Numbered from the stretch's first letter, positions 1-29,778 are shown. The stretch is DNA of 64,000 nucleotides from Amoebidium appalachense (GCA_963693365.1 CAVNZM010000013.1:6834713-6898712); one strand, 5' to 3'. The notes: generated by a model not told the origin, from the letters alone. Translations and numbers: made by a program.

Positions 1-56
1 AGGCCAACCTACCCACCGAGCACACACGCAAGGCGCTGGGCAAGGGGGGCAACCTC

Positions 57-3000
57 ATGGATCGCAAGGACCACCACGTGCTGTGCCACCTGCTGACCCC
101 GGGGGATGTGCTGGGGGTGGGCAACGTCGTCAGATCTTCCGGTTGTGGGGTGTGCAACCTGCTGATGCCCCCACCCAACTACCGTGCCTCCTTCCAGGAC
201 CGTTACCTGCGGAGACTGGTGAGGGCAACCCGTGTGCTGTGGGCCAAGTACGACCTGCCCGTGCCTGCAGAGGACGGCCTGACGGTGGATGAGCTGGATG
301 CAGCCGTGGATGCCCTCAACACGGCCATTGCCGAGCAGCCCGAGTCCGTCACCCGCCTGCGGCTGGTGGTGGTGGACATGGACAGCAAGGGCAGGGTGCT
401 ACGCCGGTACGGGGACCTGAGCACGGCCCTGCCCCCCTCCAAGCTGTGCACCATGTACTTGGCCCACTCCCAGAAGCTGGGGCACTTCACGGCCATCACC
501 TCGAGTGTCAGCACGGCCATCGAGCGCCTGCGGCACGACAACCACACGGGGGAGGCACGTCGGAGCCTCAGCACCTGCTTCCACTGCAACCAGACCGTGC
601 AAGCCAAGAACATGGGGGTGCACCGTTGTGTGAACCGGTGTGAGAACTGTGGATCAAAGGGGGACCGCAACGACCAGGCCAACGCCTGTGTGTGGACCCC
701 CGAGCGCCGTCTGCAGCTTGCACGGGCAGGGGAGGAGGCATGGCCTTACCGTTGTGACGACTGCTGTGGTCTCTTCCCTTCAGCCAAGTGCATGGCCAAC
801 CACAGCACCAGGCTCAAGGGGGTGGGGGCCAGGGCCGACGGCCGGCAACAATCCTTCTGTGACACCGTGTTCTGGTGCCGGCTGGCCACGTGCACCCACG
901 GTCTGCAGGGGTACCGGGTGTTTGGCAGTGGGGATGATGCCCGTAGGGTGTGTGTTTCGGGCAACCCTGCCGGCCGGTTCATCTACAAGTTCAAGTACGC
1001 CAGCGTGTGCCGGCTACGTCGGCTGCACACCGCCCAGGAGCAAGGGGGGTACGATGCAGGTGCAGATGCCGGCGCCAACGACGAGGGGGAGGGCTGGGGC
1101 TGGGGCACGGACACGGAGGAGGAGGACTCGGATGCCGAGGGTGCCGACTCAGACCCCCCACCCAGCCTTGCCGACTCGTCGGACGACGAAGGTGACGATG
1201 ATGACAACGGCGATGGCATCGACCTCATGCAGATGTCTGAGGGGGAGGGGGATGACGGGGGTCAGCACGGGGGCAAGAAGAAGGACGACACGTGGACACA
1301 GCACCTGTGCACCGACTACGACTGCAAGGGGTGTGGGGGGTACATGCCCGGCAACCACACGTGCCTCATACGCAGCAAGCGTGACCAGCGACGTGTGTAC
1401 ATGTGCACGCACACGGATGCAGACGGCACGGCGTGCGACAGGGTGGCATGCTACTCCAACGAGCATGGGCAGGGGGAGGAGGGGGAGGAGGGGGAGGGGG
1501 AGGGGGAGGGGTCACCTGCACGGCAGAGGGCCAGGGTGGATGGTGCCGACGGCAGGGTGGGTGCACACGTGTGCAAACGGCACGTGCCCGACGACGATGG
1601 CAGCAGGGGGCCGTGGAAGCAGACCCGACAGCCCATCAGGGACATCGTGCTGGACTTCGAGACCATGCCCGTGCCTGCCCCCGACCACACGGCCGAAAAC
1701 CCCCACTTCATCCACATCGTGTACCTTGCAGTGGCCATGTACGTCGAGCCAATGGACGGCCAGCCCTCAACCCCCATCGTCTTCTGGCCGGAGGACTCTG
1801 CCGACGGCAAGAACGGGTGGGATGTGCTGCTGGAGGACCACCACCACGTGATTGACAAGGTGGTGGCATGGCTGTTCGACACACCAGCCCATGCCGGTGG
1901 CCGGGTGTACTGCCACAACGGCAGTGGCTTTGACTTCCACTTTGTGACCAAGAGGGTGGTGGGCAGCCAGGACTACGTGTACGTGCCCATCATGGCCAAC
2001 AGCAAGATCAAGTCCTGCCGTATACGCCACTACGTCAAGAATGCCGGTGCACCAGCAGCCCCCGTGCCCATGCGGGTGGATGGTGATGGTGATGGTGATG
2101 GTGATGGTGCCGATGGCCATGGCCATGGCCACGATGGCAATGGCCATGGTGATGGCCATGGTGATGGCCATGGTGATGGCCATGGTGATGGCCATGGTGA
2201 TGTGCAGCAGGCAGCAGCAGCAGCAGGCACCGGCCGGAAGAGGAGGCACGGGGGGCAGAGGGGGGACGGCAGCCGCACGACGGTGGTGGAGCTGACGTTC
2301 GTGGACACCCTCAACTTCCTCACCATGTCGCTGTCGGACGCTGGCAAGGCCATGGGGTGCCAGGAGACGAAGGGCCACTTCCCCCACCATGCAGCCACCT
2401 TTGCCAACTTCAAGGCCGGCCACATCCCCTTCCCCGGGCCCGAGGACTTTGGGGCCCAGGACATGAAGCCCAAGCAGCATGCTGCCTTCATGCAGTGGTG
2501 GCGGGAGGAGCAGGCACGGCTGCAGGGGCAGGCACCGGCGGGCACGTGCTACGACATTGCCCAGCAGTGCGAGGACTACTGTGTCAAGGATGTGGTGCTG
2601 CTGCAGCAGGTGGTCAAGGCCTTCATGTCGAAACTCATCGAGCTGACGGGCATCGACCCCTTCACGTGCGTCACCCTTGCTTCCCTCGCCATGCACTTCT
2701 GGATCACGCAGGCCATGCCCAAGGACGTGGCCGTGATGCGTGACCAGACCATGGGCAACGTGAACAGCAGCAAGAAGGAGCAGGAGTACATCGACTACGT
2801 CACCCACGGCCTGGGGGTGGGGCCAGACGACGTTGCACGGCACGTGGCCACCGGGTACGACCCCCACGGCAGGGCCACGGCCGATGCCAAGGCCACCCAC
2901 GACGACGGCACGTGCACCCACTACTTCTTCCACGGGTGTGTGTTCCATGGGTGCCCCGACTGCAACAGGCACGAGGATCTGACGATGAGGGTGGTGAAGA

Positions 3001-4751
3001 GGCCGGCCAGGGAGGCCTACGACAGCACCATGGCCCACGAGAGGTACATCCGTGCCCAGGGGCACAAGGTGCAGAGCATGTGGGAGTGCAGGTGGGACAG
3101 GCTGAGGCAGAGCCCCGAGGTCAAGGCTGCCCTTGCAGCACAGGCGGCACGGAGGGAGGGCACCGGCAGGGTGGCCCCCGTGCCCACGGGCCCGGTGCAG
3201 TTCCGTGATGCCTTCTTTGGTGGCCGTACGGAGGTCATCACCCGTCACATCGAGGTCAAGGAGGAGGACTGGCCGGAGGCCGGGCTCAAGTACGTCGACG
3301 TCACCTCCCTCTACCCGTACGTGATGATTGACAAGTACATGCCGGTGGGCAAGTCACAGTGGTTCACGTCACTGCCCATCAAGACGGAGGACCACCCCAC
3401 GGCCATCGTCACGGATGCCCAGGTGCTGAAGGACTCGGAGAGGCTCGACAAGACGTGCCGTATGACCCCCGGCTCCCCCCAGGCCAGGACCAAGGGGTAC
3501 TTTGGTGTTGCACGTGTGAGGGCGCTCCCCCCCAAGGACCTGTTCATCCCCGTGCTGCCTGTGCGTATGACGGGTGCCCAGGGGTACGACAAGCTGGGCT
3601 TTGTGCTGTGCCGGGCCTGCAGCAGCAAGGAGGAGGCCCGGGCCACCTGCATGGACGAGGACGGCAACCCCAGGGTACGTGAGCACACACTGTGCACACA
3701 CACGGACGAGGAGAGGGCACTGGTGGGCACGTGGACGACGGAGGAGCTGAAGGTGGCCGTGCGTGATGGGTACACCATCCTCGACGTGTACGACGTGGTG
3801 CACTTCAAGAAACGCACCAAGAACCTCTTCCGGAAGTACGTGCAGACGTTCCTGAAGGTGAAGCTCACCAGCACCACCGTAGATCCGGCCGACATCCCCG
3901 CCCTCGTGCACCTGTTCAAGGAACACTACGGCATCACGGTGGCCGCCCACGAGTTCGAGCCCAACCCGGCCCTGCGTACCATCAGCAAGCTGTTTCTGAA
4001 CAGCCTCTGGGGCAAGCTGGTGCAGAGGGCAGGGCTGGACACCATCGAGTTTGTCGACGACGTCGACAGGCTGAGGCTGCTGGTGACGAACCCCAACCTG
4101 CTGGTGCTCGACGTCGAGCCCATCGGTGAGCAGAGGGTGGCCATCAAGTACCGGCCCAAGAAGGAGACGGCCCCACCCCCCTCCTACGCCAACATTGCCA
4201 TCGGCACGTTCGTGACGGCCCATGCCCGGCTGCACCTGTACGGGGCCCTCCGGTCCCTCTCCCCCCAGCAGGTGGTGTACATGGACACCGACTCCATCGT
4301 CTACCACTACGACAGCAGGGTGCCCCACCTCAGCCACAACATCGACTCCACCAACGGGGACTTGCTGGGCAACTGGAAGAACGAGACGTCGACACCCATC
4401 GTCGAGTTTGTGGGGGTGGCCCCCAAGACGTATGCCTACCGCACCCAGGACGGCAAGACCGACGTGAAGGTCAAGGGCATCACCCTGTCCCGCCGGGCGG
4501 CCGACATGGTGAACCTCCCCAGCCTGCGCATGCTGGTGCACGGCGAGCTGCCGAGTGTGAGCGTCACCAACCACCGGCTGCTGCGGGAGCCCGTGCCCGG
4601 GGTCCCCCACAACTACCACCTGGCCAGCAAGGACCAGCGCAAGACACAGTCGGGGGCGTTCGACAAGAGGGGGGTGTTCGAGGCGGCCGACGGCAGTGTA
4701 CGCAGCTACCCCATCGGGTGGGCGGCACCGGAGGGGAACCTGCAGTTTTGA
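57..4751 (+). CDS. polB: Protein-primed family B DNA polymerase (Polinton/adintovirus type); frame is open to the window edge, so the true start is probably upstream
   Basis: Exo I IVLDFET, Exo II YCHNGSGFDFHF, FVDTLNF, KGHFPH, Exo III YCVKDV, FFGGRTE, motif A YVDVTSLYPYVM, motif B KLFLNSLWGK, motif C YMDTDS, KTYAY, KVKGIT. N-terminal vOTU-like 'YLAHSQKLGHFTAITS' and Cys/His zinc motifs. Vsr-like insert 'FHGCVFHGCPDC...VQSMWEC'. No stop codon from nt 3 to the ATG at 57. Confidence 0.96.
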   Translation: MDRKDHHVLCHLLTPGDVLGVGNVVRSSGCGVCNLLMPPPNYRASFQDRYLRRLVRATRVLWAKYDLPVPAEDGLTVDELDAAVDALNTAIAEQPESVTRLRLVVVDMDSKGRVLRRYGDLSTALPPSKLCTMYLAHSQKLGHFTAITSSVSTAIERLRHDNHTGEARRSLSTCFHCNQTVQAKNMGVHRCVNRCENCGSKGDRNDQANACVWTPERRLQLARAGEEAWPYRCDDCCGLFPSAKCMANHSTRLKGVGARADGRQQSFCDTVFWCRLATCTHGLQGYRVFGSGDDARRVCVSGNPAGRFIYKFKYASVCRLRRLHTAQEQGGYDAGADAGANDEGEGWGWGTDTEEEDSDAEGADSDPPPSLADSSDDEGDDDDNGDGIDLMQMSEGEGDDGGQHGGKKKDDTWTQHLCTDYDCKGCGGYMPGNHTCLIRSKRDQRRVYMCTHTDADGTACDRVACYSNEHGQGEEGEEGEGEGEGSPARQRARVDGADGRVGAHVCKRHVPDDDGSRGPWKQTRQPIRDIVLDFETMPVPAPDHTAENPHFIHIVYLAVAMYVEPMDGQPSTPIVFWPEDSADGKNGWDVLLEDHHHVIDKVVAWLFDTPAHAGGRVYCHNGSGFDFHFVTKRVVGSQDYVYVPIMANSKIKSCRIRHYVKNAGAPAAPVPMRVDGDGDGDGDGADGHGHGHDGNGHGDGHGDGHGDGHGDGHGDVQQAAAAAGTGRKRRHGGQRGDGSRTTVVELTFVDTLNFLTMSLSDAGKAMGCQETKGHFPHHAATFANFKAGHIPFPGPEDFGAQDMKPKQHAAFMQWWREEQARLQGQAPAGTCYDIAQQCEDYCVKDVVLLQQVVKAFMSKLIELTGIDPFTCVTLASLAMHFWITQAMPKDVAVMRDQTMGNVNSSKKEQEYIDYVTHGLGVGPDDVARHVATGYDPHGRATADAKATHDDGTCTHYFFHGCVFHGCPDCNRHEDLTMRVVKRPAREAYDSTMAHERYIRAQGHKVQSMWECRWDRLRQSPEVKAALAAQAARREGTGRVAPVPTGPVQFRDAFFGGRTEVITRHIEVKEEDWPEAGLKYVDVTSLYPYVMIDKYMPVGKSQWFTSLPIKTEDHPTAIVTDAQVLKDSERLDKTCRMTPGSPQARTKGYFGVARVRALPPKDLFIPVLPVRMTGAQGYDKLGFVLCRACSSKEEARATCMDEDGNPRVREHTLCTHTDEERALVGTWTTEELKVAVRDGYTILDVYDVVHFKKRTKNLFRKYVQTFLKVKLTSTTVDPADIPALVHLFKEHYGITVAAHEFEPNPALRTISKLFLNSLWGKLVQRAGLDTIEFVDDVDRLRLLVTNPNLLVLDVEPIGEQRVAIKYRPKKETAPPPSYANIAIGTFVTAHARLHLYGALRSLSPQQVVYMDTDSIVYHYDSRVPHLSHNIDSTNGDLLGNWKNETSTPIVEFVGVAPKTYAYRTQDGKTDVKVKGITLSRRAADMVNLPSLRMLVHGELPSVSVTNHRLLREPVPGVPHNYHLASKDQRKTQSGAFDKRGVFEAADGSVRSYPIGWAAPEGNLQF
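2079..2201 (+). repeat. In-frame GATGGT / GATGGCCATGGT tandem repeat encoding (DG)n-(DGHG)n inside the PolB exonuclease domain
   Basis: 6-bp and 12-bp units read directly from the sequence; reading frame preserved. Confidence 0.9.
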
Positions 4752-5213: not shown

Positions 5214-6098
5214 ATGGACGAAGACACGTTGCTAAGTATGGTGGCCAACACCACGGACCCTGAGAAGCTGCTAGACCTGTGCCCCTTCCTCTACGACATG
5301 TACTGCAACACCACCACACAGCCACGGCCACGGCCACAGACACAAGGGTGCTGGTGGGCATACTGCAAGGAGAGGGAGACGTGCACGGGGGAACACGACG
5401 AATACGAGCACGACGGAGGGGACCAGGAGTACGTGTACGAGGAGGGGGGAGGGAGGGGGGAGGGGGAGGGGGAGGAGGAGGAGGAGGAGGACTGGGTGTA
5501 CGACGGGAGGGGGTGGGAGGGCAGCGACGGGGAGGGGAGGAAGACGTATGAGGGGTGCACGGCCTTCTGGGACAGAAAGAGGTCACAGCCATACAGACAC
5601 ATTAACCACTTCAAGCAGCTGCTGCAGTCGGTGCAGGGCCTGAATGCGAGTATGGGTGACATGCAGGAGGGGGTGGTGGCAGCATTCAGGGGCGTGCAAG
5701 GCATAGAGAACGCCGACCAGGCAAGGAGGGTGCTGAGACAGAACAAACTCACCCAACACTACACACGCGTGCCTTACATACTTAACAGGTTGTACGGGCA
5801 CCCCCTCCCCAGGTTTACGTGCGAGCAGTTGGAGGTCTTGACGGGCATGTTTAAGTTTTGCTTGTCGTGGCACCGGAGACACAAGGAGGACACACGGAAG
5901 AACTTTGTGGGGTACCCCTTCCTGTTGGTGAAAATGGTAGGGTTAGTGCGTGGTATGGACGCGGGAGTAATAGCCAGGCTGGTGCCCACGGTCAAAAGCA
6001 AAGTGACTAGAGTAAAGAGCGATAGGGTGTGGGCACGGCTGGAGAGGGACCTTAAAAACTACCACATGCTAGTGGAACATAACATGTTCTGCCTGTAG
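5214..6098 (+). CDS. VLTF3-like (poxvirus A2 / NCLDV late transcription factor 3 family) protein
   Basis: YRHINHFKQLLQSVQG, VLRQNKLTQHYTRVPYIL, RKNFVGYPFLLVK and KSKVTRVKSDRVW match, in order, the VLTF3 blocks YKRINHF..LxQxQ, LKKL..YYEHIPYI, RKNFLSYSYVL.K and KS..K....D.IW. TATA-like CATATAAAA at about 5086. Confidence 0.85.
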   Translation: MDEDTLLSMVANTTDPEKLLDLCPFLYDMYCNTTTQPRPRPQTQGCWWAYCKERETCTGEHDEYEHDGGDQEYVYEEGGGRGEGEGEEEEEEDWVYDGRGWEGSDGEGRKTYEGCTAFWDRKRSQPYRHINHFKQLLQSVQGLNASMGDMQEGVVAAFRGVQGIENADQARRVLRQNKLTQHYTRVPYILNRLYGHPLPRFTCEQLEVLTGMFKFCLSWHRRHKEDTRKNFVGYPFLLVKMVGLVRGMDAGVIARLVPTVKSKVTRVKSDRVWARLERDLKNYHMLVEHNMFCL

Positions 6099-6714: not shown

Positions 6715-9498
6715 TTATTTGCCGGCACCCTTCTTCCTCTTCTTCTTCTCCTTGCTGGCTGTCTTGGTGCGGTACACGCCACGGGCAGACTTAGGGACCG
6801 GGCCACCCTCGACATACCCAGCGGCATGGCTGGCCGGCACAACCCCTTGCCTGTGCACGTGTGCACGCACGTGCGGGTGGTGTGGGTGCATGGGCATGTC
6901 CCCCCTCCCGTAGTTGGCATGATGGTCACGGTGCACGGCCGCTGCCAGCCCAGGGGTGGCTGTGGGTGAAGGGGCACCGGTGGGGGTGGGCACGGGGAAG
7001 CTCGGACCATGTGGCCACGTGGGGGTGCCTGTGGGGGTGGGGTGAGCAGTAGCCGTGGCTGTTGGCGTGTACGGTAGGCGTGGTACGCCAGTGTTGTTAC
7101 CTTTGGTAGCAACCTTCAGCATGTGCAGAGCTACCCCCTTTGCTACCTTCTGGAGTTCTCCGAGGGTGTCACGGTTCCCCAACACGGCCTCTTGCAGGTT
7201 CGGGCCACCGCCACCAACACCGCCGTCAGCAATAGCCGGCGGGCCACCGTCACCATGGTGGCCCCTTACCACGTTGCCCAGAAGCTGGCGTGCTGCCCCC
7301 ATGAACACCCCCCTCACGTAGGAGGCCACGGCAGGGTGGTCCCACCCCGTCTGGTCCTCCCTCACCCGCCTTGTGAACTCCTCCGGGCTCTCCCGCCCGA
7401 GCATGTCGAGGTGTTCCCGCAACCCCTGCCAAAAGGGACTCAGCACCCCCTCCTCGTCGGGTCGGGCGGGGGACGTGGGGGGTCTCCACACGGCGGCAGC
7501 ACCCCCTGTTTGCGAGACCGCCCTCTTGGTGCTTGGGTACGTCGTCACGTCACCGTCATAGCCGATGGCTGCTGGGGTGGGGCTGGGGCTGGGGCTGGGG
7601 GTGGGCGTGGTGGTGGTGGTGGTGGGGCCGTCAATACCGAGGGGCAGGTCTGAAAGCTTCCCCCCTCGCACACGGTACTCATACAGGGCCTGCCTCGAGG
7701 CCTTGGGCTCTTCCTTCTTGAGTCCCCAAGCTACGAATTTGATGGCTTGGTACGGGGCGAAACCCTGCAGAGCTTGATAATACTCGGGGTGTTTGTCCAA
7801 CAACTCTTTCTCAAAGTCCCACATGGGCTCCTGGAACTCGTAATTGGCTGGTGCCAGAGCGTTTGCGACGTCCAAGAGCGTGACGTTGGACAAGGGTAGT
7901 TTCATTTTCCACACATCCAGCTCGTTGGTGGGCGTCGGTGTAGGTGTGACTGTGGGGTGGGCCTGGGACTCGGGCGTTGGGGGCGCAGGCACGAGGGGGA
8001 AGGCTTCGGCCCAAATTTGCAACGGCCACCCGCCAGACTTTGGCGGCCGTGGGGGTATCATGGCCGGCGGGTCGGGTCCACGGTAGGCAGGAGACTGGGG
8101 GTATGGTGTTGGTGCCGGTTGTAGTGGTGGGGGGAAGGGTATGGCCGGGGCAGTCGGCCTCCGCCGTGGCCCGTTACGACCCATGGGCAGGCCGGTACCG
8201 TTCCCTTTGGCGGGCGACTGTGGCGGGGGCTGAACCGTCTGCGGTGGGAAGGGTATGGGTGGTCCGTCCGGCTTGGCCGGCAGGTGGGGGGCCATGGGGG
8301 TCTGTGTGTTGAGCTCCGGGGGGAAGGGTACGGGGGTGGCCGGTTCCTTGGGTGCCTTCCAATACAAGGACTCTGGCGGGGTGGGCATGGTGGGACCGGT
8401 CATATGGGGTGCCAAGACCCCCACATGGAGTGGGGAGGGGCGGTTGGGGTCGTTGCCGGCCAGGGTAACCGGCCGTGGACGTGGCCAGGCACTGGTCGTT
8501 GGCTCATCGTCGTCGTCGTCGTCATCGGGAGGCGTGTGTAGAGGTTGTACCGGGGCTTCGGTGGGTCCGTGGGCTACCGCAGGCTCCACTGGCACAACGT
8601 CGACGTGCTTGCTTGCCACGGCCACCGGCCCGGGCAGTGACCCAGGACGGGTTGTGCTGGTCCGTGTCACCGGCAGACCGGTGCCTTTCCCTTTGCCGGG
8701 CAGCCTCGACCGGTCTGGCTTGGACGTCGGAAGGGGCCGGCCCGTCGAGGGGGGAAAGGGTATGGGTGGACCGTTGGGCTTGGCCGGCAGGTGGGGTGCC
8801 GTGGGAGTCTGGGGGTCAAGCTCTGGGGGGAAGGCCACGGGGACACGGGCCGGGGGAGGCACCTCCCATTTCAGGGACTCTGGCGGGGTGGGCATGGTGG
8901 GGCCGGCCACATGGGGCGCCAGGGGCCCGAAGGAGGGTGCGGGCTCGTTATGGGGCCGGCGGCGTGGTGCGTTTGGGGCAGGGGTTTTGGGCGGTGGAGG
9001 TGGCTTGGGAGGTGGGGGGTACGGTATGGCCGGAGCCCGGCCCGGGGGTGTGGCCGGGACAGGTGGGGGGAGGGGTGGGGTCGGCAGGGGGGCCACGTCG
9101 GGCAAGGGGGGCGGAGGTGCCCTAGGTCTGTTCCACACGTACGTGCTACCGTACTTGTCACCCAAGTGCTCATAGCCAGGGTGGTAGGCTACGTCTACCT
9201 TCACCACCTCCGGCAACCGACCACCCCACCGCTCCAGTGGCTGGTTGGGGTCCAGATATGTGTGGGCCTTCTTGAAAAATGCCTCAACCCCACCCCTGAC
9301 CAACACCTTGTAGCTATGTCGGAGTAGTGAAAGTTTGGGAGTCCCAAAGTACCCAACGGTGGTCTCCCGCCACTTGCCTGAATGCACGTCTTCCGGGTAC
9401 TGGTACTTGACAGTGTACCTGCCCAGGGGCCAAACCCTACTCGTCTCAGAGTCCAAGTCATCAGCGTGCCCACGAGGCTGCTGCACGTTGGGGGACAT
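6715..9498 (-). CDS. Large proline-rich viral protein (about 927 aa) with an internal ~57-aa duplication and a basic C-terminal tail (KEKKKRKK)
   Basis: Long uninterrupted ORF, ACC-ATG start at 9498, co-oriented with the MCP; no family recognised. Confidence 0.75.
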   Translation of the reverse strand: MSPNVQQPRGHADDLDSETSRVWPLGRYTVKYQYPEDVHSGKWRETTVGYFGTPKLSLLRHSYKVLVRGGVEAFFKKAHTYLDPNQPLERWGGRLPEVVKVDVAYHPGYEHLGDKYGSTYVWNRPRAPPPPLPDVAPLPTPPLPPPVPATPPGRAPAIPYPPPPKPPPPPKTPAPNAPRRRPHNEPAPSFGPLAPHVAGPTMPTPPESLKWEVPPPARVPVAFPPELDPQTPTAPHLPAKPNGPPIPFPPSTGRPLPTSKPDRSRLPGKGKGTGLPVTRTSTTRPGSLPGPVAVASKHVDVVPVEPAVAHGPTEAPVQPLHTPPDDDDDDDEPTTSAWPRPRPVTLAGNDPNRPSPLHVGVLAPHMTGPTMPTPPESLYWKAPKEPATPVPFPPELNTQTPMAPHLPAKPDGPPIPFPPQTVQPPPQSPAKGNGTGLPMGRNGPRRRPTAPAIPFPPPLQPAPTPYPQSPAYRGPDPPAMIPPRPPKSGGWPLQIWAEAFPLVPAPPTPESQAHPTVTPTPTPTNELDVWKMKLPLSNVTLLDVANALAPANYEFQEPMWDFEKELLDKHPEYYQALQGFAPYQAIKFVAWGLKKEEPKASRQALYEYRVRGGKLSDLPLGIDGPTTTTTTPTPSPSPSPTPAAIGYDGDVTTYPSTKRAVSQTGGAAAVWRPPTSPARPDEEGVLSPFWQGLREHLDMLGRESPEEFTRRVREDQTGWDHPAVASYVRGVFMGAARQLLGNVVRGHHGDGGPPAIADGGVGGGGPNLQEAVLGNRDTLGELQKVAKGVALHMLKVATKGNNTGVPRLPYTPTATATAHPTPTGTPTWPHGPSFPVPTPTGAPSPTATPGLAAAVHRDHHANYGRGDMPMHPHHPHVRAHVHRQGVVPASHAAGYVEGGPVPKSARGVYRTKTASKEKKKRKKGAGK
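8246..8922 (-). repeat. Two diverged ~170-bp direct repeats (about 8246-8415 and 8753-8922) within the Pro-rich ORF
   Basis: Both encode LAPHxxGPTMPTPPESLxWxxPxxxxxPVxFPPELxxQTPxAPHLPAKPxGPPIPFPP. Confidence 0.9.
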
Positions 9499-9531: not shown

Positions 9532-9909
9532 TTATTTCGCAGCGTACTGCGCCATGGGTTGCCGGGCAAAGCTGCCCTGGGGGTCACTGCTGTGCCCCAC
9601 CCTCACGGGCGTAAAGTCGACATAGTAGGACTTGCTGTTGAGGGGGAGCCCCCTGCTGCCCAGACCGCTCCTGCCGGGCATGGAGGGCACGTGGTTGTCG
9701 GTGGGCAGGTTGTTGAAGGTCGGCAGCCGGCTGAAGGGCACACCGTAAACGCCGGCCTGGAAGGCGGCGTCCGTGTGCCGTGCCCGGTAGGGGGCCGCAT
9801 AGGCAGCCTCGTACTCGGCCTCGGGTGCCAGCTTGTAGCCGTACACGGCCGCCTGCGTGGGTGTGGGCGCCAGTGGAATACCGTTGACGTTGGCCATGGC
9901 CGCGTTCAT
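9532..9909 (-). CDS. Small Ala/Tyr-rich hypothetical virion or core protein (125 aa)
   Basis: Directly downstream of the MCP on the same strand, with strong C/G third-position bias. Confidence 0.65.
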   Translation of the reverse strand: MNAAMANVNGIPLAPTPTQAAVYGYKLAPEAEYEAAYAAPYRARHTDAAFQAGVYGVPFSRLPTFNNLPTDNHVPSMPGRSGLGSRGLPLNSKSYYVDFTPVRVGHSSDPQGSFARQPMAQYAAK

Positions 9910-19685: not shown

Positions 19686-20542
19686 ATGTCTAACGTAACC
19701 AGGCTCAATCTGCTCACGCGTGCAGGCGGGTACGTGGGTGTGCTAGCCCACCCATCTACTGAAGCCTACGACCTCGTGTTCCCAAAACACCCACCCAAGG
19801 AAGGGGAGATGTTGGTTTGCACAGAAAAGGGGCTAGAGTGGAGACCCTTTACAGAGTGGTTGAAAGAGAATGCAAGCACCATCAGGGACGTGCTACTGCA
19901 CGAGCACCCTGTAACAGTTGGAAGAGGAAAGGCGAGACAACTGAATAAAATAAAGACAGAGACGGGTGAAAGGCACACGCGGCCAGGTTGCACATGGGCC
20001 GACTCAGTCTCCAGACCACTGATGTGATCCCCGACTGGGACGGCATAGCCCCCAGGTTTCGGATCAAGGCCCAGGAGCACCCGCCAGCCGGGCAAATGCC
20101 ATACTGTGCGGCCAGTCAGACCTGTCCTGCCCATGGTTCATGGGATATCTTCTTAGTACATTACAGTTCATTTACAGTTTTTACACACCCCACCCCCTCC
20201 CCCCGGCCAGACACCCCTTTCCCCCACGACCTCCTCTCCCCTACACCCCCCTTTGAGCCCCTCTTTGCCTTCCCCTCCCCACACCCGTCACCCCCTCCCC
20301 CACCACAAGAGCTACAATCCGCCGTGCTCACCCTACTCGACGATGATGAGGGTATGGCCTCAAGCACAGGCAGCACGGACACGGAAAAGGACGTCACCCC
20401 ATTGCACCCACACCCCCTCATCCCCGACCACCCCATCAAGCTCCAGGCACCCCCTGCCCCCAAGGCCAAAAAAACGACCAGAAAGACCACCAACACCCGC
20501 AGGCCAAGAAGGGTGCCCAAGGAGAAAGTGTCAACCGACTAG
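19686..20542 (+). pseudogene. Third fibre-anchor-family protein (ORF 19686..20027, probably continuing by frameshift near 19960-19985 into 19988..20542)
   Basis: LNLLTRAGGYVGVLAH...AYDLVFPKHPPKEGEMLVCTEKGLEW matches the shared N-terminal module; AAAAAATGT box upstream. Confidence 0.55.
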
Positions 20543-20563: not shown

Positions 20564-21886
20564 ATGGTGGCCAGAGACAAGGGCATTGAGCAGGTGATTA
20601 AGGAGACCTACGCCACCTTCAAGCTCCCCCCCACCGTGCAGGCACTGTGGCGGCGTGCAAAAGCAAAAGACAAGAGGGTAGGGCAACCGGCCGTGCGTGC
20701 CTACCTGTCCAGAAGAAACACCGGGCAGCAGGAATCCCTCAAGGAGGTGCTCGCCCCCCATCGTATCGAGAGGAAGGACTACCTCCCCACCACAGCACGG
20801 CCGAACAGCGTGGCGGCGGATCTGTTTTTCATGCCACGTTACTCAAAGGCAAACAGGGGGTACAAGGGGGGATTGAGCATGATTGACATGAACACGAGGC
20901 AGGCAACGGTCGTGCCCATAAAGACAAAGAGCTCAGGGAGCGGGAAGAACGAGCACCTCACCATCAGCAACGGGCCGGAGATGCAGAGGGCTGTGCACAA
21001 AGCCTTAAAGACCATCAGGGAGATGAAGGACGAAAGCAACAAAGGGGAGGAAAACCTACAACCTACAGAGGTCAAGCAGATCTTTACGGACAAGGGCACG
21101 GAGTTCCTCAGCAATACAATGAAAAAGTACTACGATCAACACGACATCACCATCCTGTTTCCTCAAAAGCCAGGCCGAAAACCACGCAACGTGGCCATGG
21201 TAGAACGGTTCCATCGCACCCTAAAGCAAGGATTGAGCAAGTACATGGAGGCCAACGACACGGGCAAGTGGACGGGGGAGGGGTTGGAAAACGTGTTGGA
21301 GGATTACAACGACACGTACCATGGTTCGATCGGTAGAGAGCCCAACAAGATGACCCAGAGGGCCGAACGGTGGAACAGCATCAACACGTGGCTGGAGAAC
21401 AGGAAGCAAAAAGGTAAGCTACGTGCCAAGATGGGGCACACGGAGGGCGTGCACGTGCGTGCACTCAAAAAGCCAAAGGGACCGTTTGAAAAGGAGGGAA
21501 GAAACTGGTCCAAGGACGTCTACACGCTCGCCTACAAGGATGCAAGTGGGTGGGCGCTACGCAACGCGGCTACAGGGGAGATGAGGAAACACACGCCAGG
21601 CCTACGCTACGCTTGGCCAGACACCATGCTAAAGAAGGTACCACCTACCAGCGTGTCTGTACCGCCCAGCAGCGGGATGCGTGCAGCTCGCAAGGAGACA
21701 GCCAAGGAGAGGGCTCGCGAGGAGCTGGCGTTTGAAGGGCGCGAGCTGGTGCGCCAGAAGGGCACGCGTGCACAAGCCCAAAAGGAAAAGGAAAAACGAA
21801 AGGCACAGGAACTGAGAAAACTGGAGTTTGCCCACCAACAGGAGCAAACGGGTCTGCGTCGCAGTGAAAGGCGTGCACGCCGCTAG
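20564..21886 (+). CDS. Retroviral-like (rve) DDE integrase, Polinton type
   Basis: VAADLFFM..MIDMNTR, IFTDKGTEF, MVERFHRTLK and YNDTYHGSIGREP; Polinton-like N-terminal helix-turn region; no chromodomain seen. Confidence 0.93.
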   Translation: MVARDKGIEQVIKETYATFKLPPTVQALWRRAKAKDKRVGQPAVRAYLSRRNTGQQESLKEVLAPHRIERKDYLPTTARPNSVAADLFFMPRYSKANRGYKGGLSMIDMNTRQATVVPIKTKSSGSGKNEHLTISNGPEMQRAVHKALKTIREMKDESNKGEENLQPTEVKQIFTDKGTEFLSNTMKKYYDQHDITILFPQKPGRKPRNVAMVERFHRTLKQGLSKYMEANDTGKWTGEGLENVLEDYNDTYHGSIGREPNKMTQRAERWNSINTWLENRKQKGKLRAKMGHTEGVHVRALKKPKGPFEKEGRNWSKDVYTLAYKDASGWALRNAATGEMRKHTPGLRYAWPDTMLKKVPPTSVSVPPSSGMRAARKETAKERAREELAFEGRELVRQKGTRAQAQKEKEKRKAQELRKLEFAHQQEQTGLRRSERRARR

Positions 21887-22245: not shown

Positions 22246-22791
22246 ATGGGGCTGGGCAGCTGCTGCGGGGTGTACAAGGTCACACAGGACAAGAGGAAGG
22301 CCGGAGTGGACACTGACAAGGTGCAGACACCAGCATGGGTGCTGGATGCACTCGAAAAGGAGTTTGGCGCACTCAATGACCCCTGCCCCATCACCTGGCG
22401 GGAGGGGGAGGACCCTTGCGCACTCACAGACGACGACGTGTGGTCCACCGAGAAAATAAACTATGTCAACCCTCCCTTCTCTGAGATTCCCCCATTTTTA
22501 CGCATGGCCATACGAATGTACATATCCAAGGGTAGAAAGAGCGTGCTGCTCGTGCCTGCACGCACGGAGGCACGCTGGTTCCATGACCTGGCCTTCAGGT
22601 ACGCCGCAGAGATACGCATCCTGAGGGGTAGGATCAAGTTTGAGGGGTTCAAGAGGCCATCGCCAGAGGGCGTGTGCCTGCTTTTGTTCACAGAGCCTCA
22701 GCCTGTCGGTGGCCCGCGTGTAGTGTCGTGGATGCCTGAGGCATACCCGCGCAGCTCAAAGGCAGGGGCCGTGTTGGGGCTGGATTTCTAG
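22246..22791 (+). CDS. dam: Phage-type DNA N6-adenine methyltransferase (Dam, T1-like family)
   Basis: DKVQTP...LEKEFG..DPC, catalytic YVNPPFS, VLLVPART..RWFH, IRILRGRIKF. Confidence 0.88.
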   Translation: MGLGSCCGVYKVTQDKRKAGVDTDKVQTPAWVLDALEKEFGALNDPCPITWREGEDPCALTDDDVWSTEKINYVNPPFSEIPPFLRMAIRMYISKGRKSVLLVPARTEARWFHDLAFRYAAEIRILRGRIKFEGFKRPSPEGVCLLLFTEPQPVGGPRVVSWMPEAYPRSSKAGAVLGLDF

Positions 22792-22872: not shown

Positions 22873-23136
22873 ATGGCCAACACCTACCAAATCGTGCTGA
22901 ACGACCAGTTTCAACCCCTCACTGCGCGTACGTCAAACGCCACGCACACAGACTTTAGCTACTATGGCCAGCAGGCGATGGCACAGGCCGTTGCGGACAA
23001 GATATGCCCGCACGGTACCCGCCACCCCTTCTTCCTCAAACCAAGCACCATGGCAGGGTCTGCAGCAGGCCGATTTGCTCGCCCCAGACCCACCTTTGCG
23101 GCACTCAGGCGTGCACATGGCAGGCCCATGCACTGA
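22873..23136 (+). CDS. Small basic hypothetical viral protein (87 aa)
   Basis: ACC-ATG-G start with AAAAATGT about 31-38 nt upstream. Confidence 0.6.
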   Translation: MANTYQIVLNDQFQPLTARTSNATHTDFSYYGQQAMAQAVADKICPHGTRHPFFLKPSTMAGSAAGRFARPRPTFAALRRAHGRPMH

Positions 23137-23233
23137 CCGTTAGTGTACGTAGTAGGCCAGGGCCAAGCGGGCAATTGGCAACCAAAAATAAAAATAATGT
23201 GCATGCATAAGTAAACGTGCAAGTCACGTCACC

Positions 23234-23815
23234 ATGGGGGTGTCATCGCAAGGCAGGAGCGGCAACACGCGTGTCATCTACGTGCAGAACCGGCCAAACA
23301 AGGCCTCAGAGGTAGCCAAGTGGGTGGGGGCCCTGGCGGGCGGTGCTGCCTTGGGGGCAGGGGGGTACTATGCATGGAAGCACAAGGGGGACATTGCGAG
23401 GGGGGTGGGCAACTACATGTACAACAAGGCTGCGGATGCTGCCACCTACACTGCAGGGAAGGCGGGGGAGGCGGGGGGGACGGTGTTCAAGGGCCTCAAG
23501 GGGGTAGCGCGTGCCACAGGCGATGCTGCCATGCAGGGCACGCAGCGTGCAGGGCAGGGCGCGCAGAATGGTGCATTCAGTGCGTGGAAGACCCTGAGGA
23601 ATGGCACGAGGGATGCGGGCAACTACCTGCTGCACAACACCCAGGATGCGTTGGGATATGGTCCTTATAACTTGAATGCTGCAGGCACACGCACGGGAAA
23701 CAGCTACGAGTGGAGAGGGGGTGGAGGGGGCGGTGCGCAGGTGCTTGTCGGCGGTAAGCCCTACGTCTGGCCGCCAGCCAGGTCGCCAAACGTATCGGGA
23801 CGCGGCATCCTCTAA
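23234..23815 (+). CDS. Gly/Ala-rich protein with Met-Gly start, GxxxG hydrophobic helix and amphipathic region (putative membrane-active virion protein)
   Basis: WVGALAGGAALGAGGYYAW followed by KHK; ACC-ATG-G start. Confidence 0.65.
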   Translation: MGVSSQGRSGNTRVIYVQNRPNKASEVAKWVGALAGGAALGAGGYYAWKHKGDIARGVGNYMYNKAADAATYTAGKAGEAGGTVFKGLKGVARATGDAAMQGTQRAGQGAQNGAFSAWKTLRNGTRDAGNYLLHNTQDALGYGPYNLNAAGTRTGNSYEWRGGGGGGAQVLVGGKPYVWPPARSPNVSGRGIL

Positions 23816-24100
23816 TGGAACCTTCCGTTTATGGTAAGTGTGCAGGGAAAAACCGTTGGCGGGCGGTGCGAGCGGCCAATCAAATTTTGTAGAATTTGTT
23901 GACTTGCATTCCATTGGCGACTCCCCTGCGCTCCTATTGGACGCCTAGGGCAACAGGAGTCACCGAATTTTGGAGCACGGTAGCGTGTGTGCACCGGAGG
24001 GCACAAAAGCCACCTGCAAACGTTCCTTCTTCAAACACTTTTTCTTATATTCTAAGCCACTCTAGCCTGGTCTTTTTGCAAGCAGCGAACTTTGGAAACC

Positions 24101-24469
24101 ATGGCAGACCTCTCCTTCCTGCCCCCTCTAGATCTAGACGATGCTGATGTTCTTGCTGCCGCCGCAGCAGCCATTTCTGTGCCAGCCCGCAGGCCTCCTC
24201 CTGGCCGCACCTTCTCCTGGCATCTCAAAGATTTGGATCTTGACACTGTTCTGCTTCAACCCTTCTACGCATCCTACCGCACGCTTGCTGAGGGGTATGC
24301 AGCACAGCCCAGTGTTTCCGCCAACGCAGCATCCTTCCTCCTCTCCGCCAAGAAAGGTGACTTCTTCGCTGGCTATGATGCAGGGGGCGAAGTCTACTTC
24401 CAAAAACGCTTCACGGGTCTAGATGACTTTGATGGGGCATGGCTCCCTGAGATGCTGGTGCGTGGTTGA
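24101..24469 (+). CDS. Hypothetical protein (122 aa)
   Basis: ACC-ATG-G start; CCAAT/ATTGG motifs upstream at 23875-23945. Confidence 0.6.
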   Translation: MADLSFLPPLDLDDADVLAAAAAAISVPARRPPPGRTFSWHLKDLDLDTVLLQPFYASYRTLAEGYAAQPSVSANAASFLLSAKKGDFFAGYDAGGEVYFQKRFTGLDDFDGAWLPEMLVRG

Positions 24470-24737
24470 AACAACTGACACATGAACTGTACATGACAAA
24501 GAATGTGATCACAGCACACAATCGCGCAAAATCACATAAAATATGTCCCACCAATAGGAACAATCACCAAGAAATGAACAAGACACCGCGCAACCAGAAG
24601 GAACCAAAAGATGTGAAAAAGGACGAAGGCTGACTGGCGGACCGCACCAGAACACGAAGCGGCCACCCCGCGGCCGCGGAGAAGCAACCGGGCCGACCGA
24701 AACCTGGGGCACAGCCGTCCCAGTACGGGGACACACA

Positions 24738-25949
24738 GTGAAGGAGACAGACGAGCGCCAGAGCAACGCCCCACCCACCGCCCCCCCCCAAGAAGCCACG
24801 GCCACCACCGAAGGAGAGACCGGGACCCCGGCACACCCAGCCCCCCGCCCCCCCCCCGCCCCGGCGCGCACCCCCCCCGCGCCCCCGCACCCTCGCAGAG
24901 AGAGCGGGGAAGGCGACGCACAGAGCACAGGAGAGCGCGCCCCCGGCCGAGGGCCACCCCGCGCCCCCCCCAGACAGAGGGCCCCGAGCACGGGCCCCCG
25001 GAAAAAGGGAAACTCTACTTGCAGCAGCTGGCGAAGAATTTCGCTGAAGGCGTCTAGCTGTGGGCCACAGGGAGGAGAGGGGGGGCGCCGGGGGGGGGCT
25101 ACAAAGCGCGTAGGGGAACAAGTGAAGGAGAAGAAGTGGCGTAGGCGGTGCTTTCTACCCGTTCCTTTTGATGTTTCTCGCCTTATCCCAACTAGTTCAA
25201 CTGTTTACAGTGGTACCATCTCTGAGCCTGCAGAACTGGCTGAACTGCACGGCAAGTCGCTTTTGGCAACACTCGCGTGCCGCAACGCCCTCATGCTCAA
25301 GGGGGTGGCTGCTGCTGTGGTAGACATCCTCCTACCGCAGTTCACAGAGCATGAGAGATCCACTAGGCACAAGGTAGAGACAGACCCTCAGTTGGTTGGC
25401 AACTACATGCAGAGGTACCTGGAGGAGATAGAGGCCAACTGGGAGCCCATCGTCGGGATGTGCAAGGCAGGACTCACTCCCCACAGGGAGAGAGAGGTGG
25501 CCCGCCACCTGGCTCGTGTTGTTGCTGGCTTCCTGCAGACCATGGTGGCCACTGCAAAGGCAGCCAAGTTGAAGTCCACGCCCCTCTTCAAAGGGGTCGC
25601 CATGGATGTCCTCCATGACATGCAGGCATTGCTGCGTGGGGTTGCGAATGAGCGTATGTATGGTGCAGGTGAGAAGATTGTGTTTGCAGGGCTGATCAAG
25701 AAAAACATCCACAAGGAGGCACCATCACGGCGCAAGTCCGGCACGTTCATCGACATTGCCCCCAAGGAGAAGGAAAACCTTGCCCCCCTCCGCAGCAGCA
25801 GCACCAACAGCAACACCCCCTACAACAACAACAACAACATCATGACGGTCGGTGCCCCCTACTTCTACGGTAGGACCCGGGTGCCTAACTTACTCCGTAC
25901 CTCAGCGGCACCGCCCCTCAAGACTGTGAACCATGGCTACATGGGCTAG
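24738..25949 (+). CDS. Hypothetical helical protein; 5' part low-complexity, start uncertain
   Basis: Portion after about 25190 has viral-like codon bias and globular composition; no ATG at the ORF start. Confidence 0.5.
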   Translation: MKETDERQSNAPPTAPPQEATATTEGETGTPAHPAPRPPPAPARTPPAPPHPRRESGEGDAQSTGERAPGRGPPRAPPRQRAPSTGPRKKGNSTCSSWRRISLKASSCGPQGGEGGRRGGATKRVGEQVKEKKWRRRCFLPVPFDVSRLIPTSSTVYSGTISEPAELAELHGKSLLATLACRNALMLKGVAAAVVDILLPQFTEHERSTRHKVETDPQLVGNYMQRYLEEIEANWEPIVGMCKAGLTPHREREVARHLARVVAGFLQTMVATAKAAKLKSTPLFKGVAMDVLHDMQALLRGVANERMYGAGEKIVFAGLIKKNIHKEAPSRRKSGTFIDIAPKEKENLAPLRSSSTNSNTPYNNNNNIMTVGAPYFYGRTRVPNLLRTSAAPPLKTVNHGYMG

Positions 25950-26074
25950 TGCACAGGATAGGGGGGCAGTGCCCTAAACTTTGCCATTTTTAATTTTTTA
26001 GTAAAGTACCTTAAAGTTTGAGCATGCCATGGTCTCATTAACATAGACACCGTTGTGATTTGTGTATACATAGT

Positions 26075-26378
26075 GGGCAGTGCCCTTTATTTTCACGTTT
26101 TTTTCTTCTTCTTCTATACAAAGAATTGAACCGACGGCAAAAATAAACTTTTGTTTTTTTACGAAAGTTCCAAGAAAAAAAACAGAGCACAAGCTGAAGA
26201 CTACCATGGTGCATTGCACACGTGTGCCTGCACGTGTGCGTGTGTGTGTGCATGTGTGTGCATGTGTGTGCTTGTGTGTGCCAAAACACTCTAACAAAAA
26301 TCTATGAAGATTTTAACGATAAAAAATAAAAAAACTTTGTGATCTGTGGATGCATTGGGCGGAGCCCTTTATTTTCAC

Positions 26379-26409
<31 letters not shown>

Positions 26410-26502
26410 CCTACAAAGAAAACCGACGGCAAAAAGATCCAAGGAAAAAAAACAGAGCACAAGTTGAAGACTACTATGGTGCATTGCACACGTGTGCCTG
26501 CA

Positions 26503-26567
<65 letters not shown>

Positions 26568-26626
26568 ATGTGTGTGCATGTGTGTGTGCATGTGTGTGTG
26601 TGTGTGTGTGTGTGTGGGTGTGTGTG

Positions 26627-26699
<73 letters not shown>

Positions 26700-26710
26700 A
26701 TGTGTGTGTG

Positions 26711-26759
<49 letters not shown>
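26075..26759. repeat. Diverged tandem duplication (about 26075-26280 and 26357-26520) running into a ~250-bp (TG)n tract
   Basis: Both copies contain gccctttattttcacgtttttt...accgacggcaaaaa...aaaacagagcacaag.tgaagactac.atggtgcattgcacacgtgtgcctgcacgtgtgcg(tg)n. Confidence 0.9.
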
Positions 26760-26760
<1 letters not shown>

Positions 26761-27734
26761 TAAACGTTGCTGTTTGGCCCGTGGGGTGGCTCTGCCACAA
26801 CCACTTGGTAGACCTTCGCGGTCTCTGATGTTTCTGGCCTCATCCGTTTGTTGTCACGTTCCGTGACAACGAGGCTGAACAGTTTGGACTTGATGCCCTC
26901 GTTAAGGGCCGTCAGAATGTCCCGTGCCGTTTCCTCCACCCACAGGCGATCCATCACCTCGAACAGGAAGTTGTGCACAAGTCGTTGCAGGTTATCCCGC
27001 AGCCCTCGTTCCTTGTGCATTATGCGGGGGTGGCAGTTTGGGGGTGAGACCATCCAATCGACCGTGATAAACTCGACGTACTTCTTCGACTCCGACCACG
27101 TCGTGTCGACAAACGTGATGAATCGCCTAACGTCGTTAATGTTATCGTCGTCGAAAACTCTCGGGGACACCGAGTCCAGGAAACCACCCACACGGCCTTC
27201 GTACACGTACAACCCCCATGCATCCCCCTCGGCCCACTTCTCTAGTTCCCCCAAGTCTCTCTTGAACCGTGTCTCGTGCCCATCCTCGTAGTTGGGTGCG
27301 GTGATAGTGAACGTCCATTCCCCCTGCTCGTTGATTTCCCCCTTAAAAATGTCCGTGCCTAACACTTGGTTGAGACGTCCTGGTAGGGCCTTCTTTTCCT
27401 CCATCGACCACGTGCCTGTGTGTGTGTTCACCTTGGTAATTGCACGTTCCCGCTCCATCACTTCGTCCTCGAAAAACTGCCATACTTCCACCCTCTCCAT
27501 GCTCGTCTTGGCCCAGTCGGCAATCATCTCCCTATAGGTGGGTGAAACGGGGCGTGTGACCCACTCTTTAGTACGGTGATTGTAGTACCTGTAGGTACCG
27601 TTGAAAATGTGCAGGTGGGGTTGGGCTGCCACGTCGAGATAGTGGCCAAACATGGGTTGGTTGGTTGCTTTTCTTATGAAGGGGGGACCAAGTTCGAGGT
27701 CGTCCTCTGAGGAATCAATACGATGAGAAGACAT
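26760..27734 (-). CDS. Hypothetical globular protein (324 aa)
   Basis: Uninterrupted ORF, AAC-ATG start, normal amino-acid composition; no family recognised. Confidence 0.7.
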
Positions 27735-28128: not shown

Positions 28129-29049
28129 TTACATCCTGAGCATTTTGGCCTTGTCCTCCCCAGGCATGGGCGTGCCAGCACGCTTAGCCTGCCCCATGTC
28201 TACATCACCCCCCTCCCCCTCACTACCCGCACCATCACTGACCAACTCCATCAGACCATCTAACTCAAACACCTGAACCTTGCGGGCAACGAGCTTGGTG
28301 CGCACAGTGTTGTTTTTCTTGTTGTAGATGACGCTGGTGGCGGCAGCAGACACCCATGCAGTAACCTCACGGCACTTGGCACGCTGGGAGTTCATAAACT
28401 CCACAAACTCATCCACAGAGGCCGCGTTGTTGCCCAGCTTGAAGAGGCAGGCGTTGCGGCCATGGGGGTTGGGCAATTCCAACGTCACGTTGAAGTAGGT
28501 GTCGCCCAGTGCCCCCTCCATGTCCTCCTTGCCGACGGGGTCGGCACCCAGCACCTCGTACAGGTTGGGGGTGTGCTTGCTCCAGAGGTTGCTGCTGGTC
28601 TTGACGGGCACACCATCCAGGTCGACACCCTTGAGCATCTCGTGGTCCTTGTGCATCCACAGCACGTCCTTGGCCATGCTGCACACGTAGGGCCACAGGT
28701 CTGTGGCGTAGGCCACCTCAAAGGGCTCGGGGCGGCGTTGGGACTTGATCTTAATGGTGGGTTTGGTGTCCCAGGCAGCCGTGCTGGGAACCAGCTCGAT
28801 GAGCATTTGCCCGTTGATGTTGATGTTGGGCAGGTTGTACAGCTGCACCACCAGCACGTCGTTCATGACCCAGGGTGCACCCATGGTGGCCTTGCCCACA
28901 CCGTTGAGGAACACCTCCTTGTACTGCACCATCTTGGCCCCCTCAACGCTGCTGTTGATGTCTTCTTTGCCACTGCTTGCCGCGACGATGCTGGTCCTTT
29001 TGACGGTGGACAGACCAGTCATTTGACGCAGCAGGGTTGGCTTGACCAT
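28129..29049 (-). CDS. Putative single-stranded DNA-binding protein (T7 gp2.5 / NCLDV SSB-like OB fold)
   Basis: Clear coding bias. C-terminal strand KLVARKVQVFEL followed by an acidic Gly-rich tail resembles gp2.5-family 'L.L.AVQV.EL' plus acidic tail. Function is inferred. Confidence 0.5.
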   Translation of the reverse strand: MVKPTLLRQMTGLSTVKRTSIVAASSGKEDINSSVEGAKMVQYKEVFLNGVGKATMGAPWVMNDVLVVQLYNLPNININGQMLIELVPSTAAWDTKPTIKIKSQRRPEPFEVAYATDLWPYVCSMAKDVLWMHKDHEMLKGVDLDGVPVKTSSNLWSKHTPNLYEVLGADPVGKEDMEGALGDTYFNVTLELPNPHGRNACLFKLGNNAASVDEFVEFMNSQRAKCREVTAWVSAAATSVIYNKKNNTVRTKLVARKVQVFELDGLMELVSDGAGSEGEGGDVDMGQAKRAGTPMPGEDKAKMLRM

Positions 29050-29189
29050 TTTGCTGTTGCTTGGGGGGTGTGGTGAACGTTACTGTGGTGTGCACCTCGA
29101 CTGTGACTGTCTGGCTCATGTTTGGTTGGTGAGATGTTGCCTGTGTGCGGCTGTTTATGTACACGGCGGTAGGATGCAGGGTGCGTTTC

Positions 29190-29400
29190 TGGCCAATGAG
29201 GACCGTAATCCCTGTTCCCTGTGCCCTCATTGGACACCTAGAACCACATGTGCCTGTCTAGATTCCGATTGGACGCCTTGTGCGGCAATTTGCTTTTTTG
29301 AGCCGAATTATCATTGGCCGCCCTGCGCATCCGTAATACCATTGGACGCCTTGTACATGGAATTCAGAATTCGAATTCCCATTGGACGCCTTGCGCAAAC
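29190..29400 (-). promoter_or_regulatory. Array of CCAAT-box motifs (ATTGGACGCC consensus on +) upstream of the SSB-like gene
   Basis: ATTGG copies at 29229, 29268, 29313, 29341 and 29381; three are exactly ATTGGACGCCTTG. The same 10-mer occurs at 23936. Confidence 0.65.
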
Positions 29401-29778
29401 CTTCGCATTCCTTTGATCCGCACTTGTGTACATGTACGCACCACATGTACGCGTACACGTACGCGTACACGTGTTCCGCCCTCTCTCTCTTTAATTGTTT
29501 AATTCTTTAATTAAAACCACGTGCTCTGCACGTGTTTTACACACACACAGTGTGTGCACGTGCTCATGTACATATATCCACCCATATCACATATCCCATA
29601 TCGCGATATGTGTACACAGATATCACATATCTCATCATGGCCACACATCGATTCAGTCGCACACATCGATTCAAATGTCGCTTTTTATTATCTGCTAATA
29701 AATAGTATCCTTCGCGCATCCACCCCTAAACCAGGCCATCCGTGGCCCTAAGGGCCGGGGAACACCCCCATCCATGTC

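Follow-up and report, generated by a model that had tools for sequence, protein, structure and literature searches.

A Polinton-like DNA virus of about 30 kb embedded in host DNA, with an adintovirus-class polymerase and a capsid probably of protist lineage

Extent and gene content of the viral element

The window, that is, the whole stretch of 64,000 nucleotides that we analyzed, contains a gene-dense viral element extending from base 1 to approximately base 29,634, and its right half is host DNA rich in microsatellites. The viral part has a GC content of 55-69% across its first 26 kb and is about 78% coding by the ORFs that were kept. In all, 29.6 kb of the element is visible, with the left end beyond the window and the right end cut by a LINE. 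Family or fold matches were obtained for a protein-primed family B DNA polymerase (pPolB), an rve integrase, a capsid protein, an A32 ATPase, a VLTF3 and a Dam methylase, bearing out the core gene set that an earlier note had read from the sequence. The double-jelly-roll capsid, the A32 ATPase and a size between 15 and 45 kb are those of Polinton-like viruses (PLVs) in the broad sense.

The description of this gene set as near giant-virus-like was overstated, as it amounts to one or two borrowed genes. Among the 26 ORFs of the window taken into the Pfam scan, no families were found for RNA polymerase, D5 primase, VLTF2, RuvC, HUH or SF3 helicase or an NCLDV-type capsid, and in place of the genes expected of Mriyaviricetes or Nucleocytoviricota the element carries pPolB and rve. 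No Rfam match reached the gathering score and no tRNA was found.

Polymerase, integrase, VLTF3 and methylase

The polymerase gene occupies bases 1-4751 on the + strand (frame 3/57-4751), matches Pfam DNA_pol_B_2 with an E of 4e-39 and contains both exonuclease and polymerase motifs. Since the reading frame is already open at base 3 and about 75-260 extra residues precede the common zinc-finger region in most of the homologues listed, its start likely lies outside the window, as does the left end of the element, in agreement with the earlier note. The protein belongs to the protein-primed PF03175 (Alpha) class, as do the polymerases of adintoviruses (Polintoviricetes). Its 62 homologues are 25-33% identical to it, and those with a name come from coral, reptile and insect genomes. 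In a FastTree phylogeny of 68 rows it forms a long branch of unsure placement outside the main animal-rich group. Its top-scoring homologue is found on contig L031 alongside a PF21738 capsid, PLA2, TBP and rve, which, judged by gene layout, is an ordinary adintovirus; the TATA-binding protein gene of this Alpha-adintovirus-like contig spans L031:7175-7729. A PolB scan of viral contigs returned 14 weak, single-segment matches.

A VLTF3-like late transcription factor follows at 5214-6098 (+), matching Pox_VLTF3 (E 4e-10) over profile positions 10-165 of 168. The integrase (20564-21886, +) is a DDE enzyme of the Polinton type: an IS481-type model matches at E 1e-9 with the D-D-E residues in place, the Pfam match is weak (rve_3, E 0.023), and the acidic triad aligns with that of the homologues, three of four of which carry rve. 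Two of these also have a chromodomain, which is absent from the integrase of the window. The pairing of an rve integrase with an A32/FtsK ATPase is likewise that of adintoviruses and Polintoviricetes. Finally, a phage-type N6-adenine methyltransferase with an NPPF motif is encoded at 22246-22791 (+; Dam E 2e-13, TIGR01712 E 4e-11). GATC frequency in the window is not depleted (ratio 0.96). A methylase is encoded by over half of the PLVs and virophages in a 2021 survey (PMC7805220), and a Dam is listed for the Amoebidium adintoviruses in a further report, where one such enzyme expressed in E. coli gave no gain of 6mA (10.64898/2026.05.21.726589).

The capsid module

The gene for the double-jelly-roll major capsid protein lies at 9949-11718 (-), with the second Met, at base 11688, as its likely start. 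This 589-residue candidate had no match in Pfam, and neither its sequence nor its profile found anything in the PDB by sequence. A profile search recovered 389 relatives, of which 121 were aligned for structure prediction. The resulting model (pLDDT 77.8) superimposes on the PBCV-1 capsid chain with Z 28.0 and an rmsd of 2.9 over 358 aligned residues, and further fold matches were to Faustovirus (Z 26.4), mavirus (18.6) and an adenovirus chain (16.5). The predicted fold thus establishes the protein as a capsid protein; it cannot place it, since none of the 50 matches listed is named as a Polinton or PLV capsid.

A single close homologue (52%) was present among 5.8 billion proteins, and the nearest named relative among the best 10 looked up was SARC_11267 of the ichthyosporean Sphaeroforma arctica. 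In a capsid tree of 57 rows, in which the grouping is partly built in because rows were picked by likeness to the window protein, the capsid grouped with P0001 at a support of 100, then with P0003 and Sphaeroforma (84), and three Polinton-type rows stood apart from it. The profile of the window capsid matched the capsid of contig L044, a PLV-like lake contig, with an E of 2.5e-34, as against 7e-5 for the Polinton-type capsid of L031 and 2e-7 and 1e-3 for two others; the profile-profile probability with the L031 capsid was 7%. Contig L044 (L044:1-10411) is a metagenome contig with a pPolB, a DDE-integrase-like ORF and a 1036-residue capsid of the same broad family. PF21738 was matched by none of 60 capsid relatives, out of 150 listed.

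These comparisons bear on the possibility of a genuine adintovirus (Polintoviricetes) in which divergence has carried the capsid and protease past detection. The polymerase and integrase are what would be expected of one, the best named polymerase matches being animal Polinton polymerases and the integrase homologues rve-chromodomain proteins; the published label for such elements says adintovirus; and the capsid profile does match three Polinton-type capsids weakly (E 2e-7 to 1e-3). Moreover, one Polinton capsid with an adenain neighbor likewise misses PF21738. Against this stand the far stronger match of the same profile to the lake contig, the absence of PF21738 from all 60 relatives, the low probability with L031, and the failure to find an adenain gene in 627 six-frame segments. 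In addition, the virion proteins of adintoviruses are restricted to animals according to Starrett et al. (PMC8502044). We consider a diverged adintovirus unlikely and favor a capsid from a protist PLV-type lineage, which the sequence comparisons make the likely origin. Because the capsid groups with this lineage and no adenain was found, the label 'adintovirus' may fit the polymerase only.

The earlier note had recognized no adenain, and within the visible part of the element neither Pfam nor a small profile of limited sensitivity found one; the profile was built from five sequences, and the small-profile method also missed the penton candidate. The A32-like packaging ATPase is encoded next to the capsid gene at 11702-12505 (-; Pox_A32 E 4e-9). 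Relatives of the capsid, the ATPase and VLTF3 were not found in IMG/VR viral contigs. A probable penton, the minor capsid protein, lies at 14130-15181 (-), where the copy at hand has the gene broken across three frames. It is placed between the ATPase and the fibre genes and carries motifs that we take to be those of a penton; its predicted fold reached a pLDDT of only 31.8 and a seven-sequence penton profile gave no match. We keep the penton label proposed earlier as a lead. Three further ORFs lie to either side of the capsid and ATPase genes: a 202-residue ORF (12841-13449, +) with a short basic helix that by eye resembles an ORF neighboring the L044 capsid gene, a proline-rich ORF of 927 residues with a basic tail (6715-9498, -) that matches no family, and a 125-residue ORF (9532-9909, -), also without a family, that is present in a second subfamily of the element.

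Fibre, membrane and orphan genes

Of the several fibre genes that had been proposed, one is intact, a second is broken and a third is doubtful. The intact gene (15243-16712, +) encodes a 42-residue coiled-coil repeat (126 bp x 4.4) followed by a variable C-terminal head. The second fibre-like region (16844-18862, +) has the N-terminal motif of the first, but a stop codon and shifts of frame break it up, and the third candidate, a short ORF at 19686-20027 (+), shows a likeness to the fibre N-terminus of 24% in alignment that is not significant by BLAST. Sequencing depth over the fibre head (16205-16871) falls far below that of its flanks in two DNA runs, which suggests that receptor-binding tips are swapped between copies.

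The gene at 18890-19634 (-), read earlier as opsin-like, encodes a membrane protein and not an opsin: it has six hydrophobic segments in place of seven helices, its sole lysine is at residue 46, and the retinal-binding lysine of the last helix is absent. It had no match in Pfam or, at E 10, in the PDB. Nor was the proposed SSB confirmed; the 306-residue ORF at 28129-29049 (-) is a possible single-stranded DNA-binding protein on the lead of an Atlas Pox_I3 cluster (0.86, with the family on 12% of members), and it had no match in the PDB. The remaining ORFs match no family or are orphans, namely three short ORFs at 22873-24469 (+; starts 22873, 23234 and 24101) and two orphans within 25293-27734 (25293-25949, +; 26760-27734, -) that are separated by a GT microsatellite. 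Between these two, at 26070-26760, there is a direct duplication of about 290 bases whose second copy enters a GT array of 256 bases.

Copies, subfamilies and the right boundary

The capsid-ATPase stretch is present in 20 of the 24 sequencing runs listed. Two DNA runs contain contigs nearly identical to the window as well as a second, colinear set that is approximately 85-87% identical, and one run holds a 7.6 kb contig matching the ATPase only, at about 82%. Contigs of the second subfamily span three junctions (capsid-ATPase, penton-fibre and Dam-ORF), and between 9.5 and 25.3 kb their genes come in the same order. Contig depths are no copy numbers, and the depth comparison covers 6.2-26.2 kb and the part of the element beyond 26.8 kb; a run that we guess to be RNA covers parts of the element thinly. 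The element is one multi-copy family with at least two subfamilies.

Colinearity of the second subfamily is also what decides against a mosaic of independent insertions, which the earlier note had named among the findings that would overturn its reading. A mosaic could account for a copy-specific stretch of about 950 bases, for the lower depth at the fibre head and at the ORF of 26.8-27.8 kb, and for the LINE that adjoins the end. Set against these, the second subfamily is colinear from 9.5 to 25.3 kb, and composition and CGC loss extend through nearly all ORFs, so that a mosaic is highly improbable. In this the earlier note was right: there is a single Polinton-like element of about 30 kb with a capsid unlike that of animal Polintons, no adenain that could be recognized, a VLTF3 and a methylase.

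Over the penton and fibre regions, a few gap letters separate the window from the short-read contigs that are nearly identical to it, so that the breaks in these genes may be copy-specific or assembly errors. Either partial decay or mis-assembly thus affects the penton and the second fibre gene here. The stretch at 24317-25267, skipped by the second subfamily and nearly T-free from 24.6 to 25.0 kb, is likely an insertion or poorly assembled. Part of it (24600-25230) is an inverted, T-poor likeness of a repeat at 19949-20076, with 0-4 T in every 100 bases along a run of 400, and the repeats at 19.9-20.1 kb and 24600-25230 form an inverted pair on either side of the integrase-Dam block. The 130 bases of 19949-20076 match very deep contigs, at about 10,500 in a DNA run and about 23,700 in the putative RNA run, whose ends are loose at either side; they probably represent a fragment, within the virus, of some abundant host repeat or RNA. 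They match nothing in Rfam and were not found in the metagenome contigs searched. A ribozyme is not claimed for this repeat, which folds no better than shuffled sequence (z -0.35) and has only partial hammerhead-like words, judged by eye.

At its right end the element runs into a full-length, two-ORF LINE that does not belong to the virus (29642-34296, +; RVT_1 E 6e-28), inserted at the virus end and terminating in a CA repeat and poly-A. In two DNA runs other copies of the element run past 29,634 in different sequence, and the LINE begins at about 29,642. The boundary, earlier set at 29,602, is therefore a LINE junction at about 29,634-29,641 and no clean terminus. The LINE itself is intact and ends in (CA)34 and poly-A; its depth climbs steeply toward the 3' end, as for many truncated copies, and in a run with another organism code it shows four differences over 4.5 kb. 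The word CATATCCCATATC occurs at 29581-29602 and again at 34490-34520; the second occurrence may mark where the viral terminus resumes, or it may belong to a duplication on both sides of the LINE. Beyond it, host exons encode an RNase T2 (34569-34916) and a calponin-homology (CH) domain (48039-48380), the only domains above the cut-off in a Pfam search of 112 of the 123 segments of the host flank.

Loss of CGC/GCG and the host

The coding sequences of the element are depleted in one class of CG site. In a codon-shuffle test that counts CGC/GCG across codon borders, observed against expected, 15 of 16 viral ORFs fell below expectation. The effect is clearest in PolB, with 38 CGC/GCG observed against 155 expected (ratio 0.24), other CG classes at 0.78-0.90, and the deamination products enriched (TGC/GCA 1.49, CAC/GTG 1.57); GCG serves for nine of its 135 alanines, as compared with ACG for 46 of its 101 threonines. 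Controls were the 24 ORFs of at least 500 codons from 80 metagenome loci, the rest being too short and a few of the 24 not being PolB; one of these, on contig L044, stood at 0.31 and seven more at 0.48-0.65, and the window capsid gene, at 0.56, is within this control range. A low ratio is thus not peculiar to this element, and the host flank shows no more than a mild deficit (0.37 against 0.42 expected). In Amoebidium, mCGC/GmCG is methylated to about 70% and other CG to about 20%. No report of a CGC/GCG scar in these viral genes was found in the literature searched.

From the Sphaeroforma capsid relative and the CGC/GCG loss we infer that Amoebidium is the host. An undescribed lineage in some other host would be consistent with the single close capsid homologue among 5.8 billion proteins, with the lack of capsid, ATPase and VLTF3 relatives in IMG/VR, and with the presence of the stretch under four organism codes. 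Nevertheless, size, gene set and methylation context all match Amoebidium, and the databases searched may lack its gene models, which leaves another host improbable.

Promoter boxes and a proposed life cycle

Two kinds of candidate promoter element were seen. The right terminal region (29050-29634) holds four ATTGG(A/C)CGCC (reverse CCAAT) boxes, all upstream of the SSB-like gene; the total of five, against 0.28 expected, suggests host CCAAT-box promoters. In addition, a AAAAATGT-type box lies 29-43 bases upstream of five of 18 gene starts, including the second Met of the capsid gene, as compared with a background of 0.65% of all 50-base windows; the pattern was chosen after looking and the background ignores AT-rich spacers. 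The exact AAAAATGT box is absent before the ATPase, penton and fibre genes.

Polintons replicate by protein priming, integrate through rve and package through A32. By analogy, the protein-primed PolB would copy the viral DNA, the rve integrase would insert a copy, and the A32 ATPase would pack DNA into the double-jelly-roll capsid. Transcription would take place in the nucleus with the host's RNA polymerase II, and CCAAT boxes would drive the SSB-like gene. As a guess, VLTF3 could turn on the genes of the capsid module at the AAAAATGT box, although a helper giant virus could read the box instead. Integrated copies would be silenced through host cytosine methylation, and deamination of methylcytosine would leave the CGC scar while selection keeps the core frames open.

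A helper is the center of a second account, in which the element is a virophage-like parasite whose integrated copies wake on giant-virus infection and use the transcription machinery of that virus, the VLTF3 and AT-rich box matching the helper and the methylase protecting the DNA against nucleases of the helper. Many giant-virus insertions are present in Amoebidium, and Sarre et al. raise this idea and regard the VLTF3 as probably of giant-virus origin (PMC11244446); several isolated PLVs depend on giant viruses, as stated in another report (10.64898/2026.06.19.733378). On the other hand, a life in the nucleus is indicated by the scar of cytosine methylation and by the CCAAT-type boxes ahead of the SSB-like gene, and the sequence bears no sign of a helper. 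Nuclear and helper lifestyles are not exclusive, and we hold a virophage-like habit to be possible, albeit doubtful.

Relation to described viruses

Sarre et al. (2024) describe 44 endogenous 'adintoviruses' of about 30 kb in Amoebidium, whose genes include PolB, VLTF3, Dam and both capsid proteins, minor and major (PMC11244446). The present element likewise unites PolB, VLTF3, Dam and major capsid in one compact unit, and shares with those insertions an apparent size of about 30 kb, compactness, multiple copies, several clades and the decay of some copies (PMC11244446). Compared by description, the available text names no integrase, ATPase, fibres or SSB, leaves the capsid unclassed, does not discuss adenain and reports no CGC loss (PMC11244446), and no classing of the capsid was found in what is accessible of the Amoebidium adintovirus literature. 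By size and gene content, the element likely belongs to a kind already in print, and its gene set is not new. Since a matching size and gene set have been published for 44 Amoebidium appalachense insertions, the earlier note's distinct, expanded lineage does not stand as a novelty: a described family of equal gene content, which the note had named as grounds for refutation, largely exists. The best explanation overall, which we regard as very probable, is an integrated Polinton-like DNA virus of about 30 kb, likely among the published Amoebidium 'adintovirus' insertions.

Other groups are alike in part. Alpha adintoviruses, or group 2 Maverick-Polintons, share the PF03175-class PolB, rve, A32/FtsK and double-jelly-roll capsid, whereas the window element is larger, has VLTF3 and Dam, yielded no adenain or PLA2, and has a capsid only faintly related to theirs (PMC8502044). 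In the same source, Starrett et al. describe MELD viruses as chimeras of PolB and a foreign capsid in protists; those of protists and fungi have an adintovirus-like PolB and integrase with unrecognizable virion proteins, as well as fibres, and one legend names a VLTF, but their hosts differ from that of the window element (PMC8502044). Sphaeroforma has a novel capsid gene, and PLVs usually lack a protease, according to the 2021 survey (PMC7805220). VLTF3 occurs in about 30% of two Zephyrvirus clusters, VC123/VC126 (10.64898/2026.06.19.733378), and in Mriyaviruses (PMC11253617). Going by these sources, both groups share a mid-size genome with VLTF3, and some members a pPolB or SSB (10.64898/2026.06.19.733378; PMC11253617); unlike them, the window element has no VLTF2, RuvC or HUH family and its capsid is unmatched by Pfam NCLDV capsid models. 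Zephyrviruses are not known to have integrated copies (10.64898/2026.06.19.733378).

Taken by sequence, the genome is likely chimeric: the polymerase is of the Alpha-adintovirus class and the integrase of the Polinton type, and they are joined to a capsid module of the protist PLV type in which no adenain was found. Its VLTF3 was probably borrowed from a giant virus according to a figure legend of Sarre et al. (PMC11244446, fig. S5 legend). More tentatively, and with somewhat less than even chances, the Amoebidium 'adintoviruses' may be no adintoviruses at all but an ichthyosporean clade of protease-less PLVs shared with Sphaeroforma, with a late program that combines the giant-virus VLTF3 and host polymerase II at AAAAATGT, residing long-term in a CGC-methylating host that has burned the motif out of their genes, in which case a scar of this kind could identify a virus's host.

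Element type, size and the VLTF3 and Dam genes are already in print; what is added is modest, namely the relabeling of the capsid, the scar left by methylation and the candidate late box. If the capsid is of the protist PLV lineage, the published label needs revision, and the element would be another case of an animal-Polinton polymerase on a different capsid module, here in a close relative of animals. The CGC/GCG scar would be sequence evidence of long-term host methylation of viruses that nonetheless stay intact. Finally, a VLTF3 without a viral RNA polymerase offers a small system for asking what this poorly understood giant-virus factor does.
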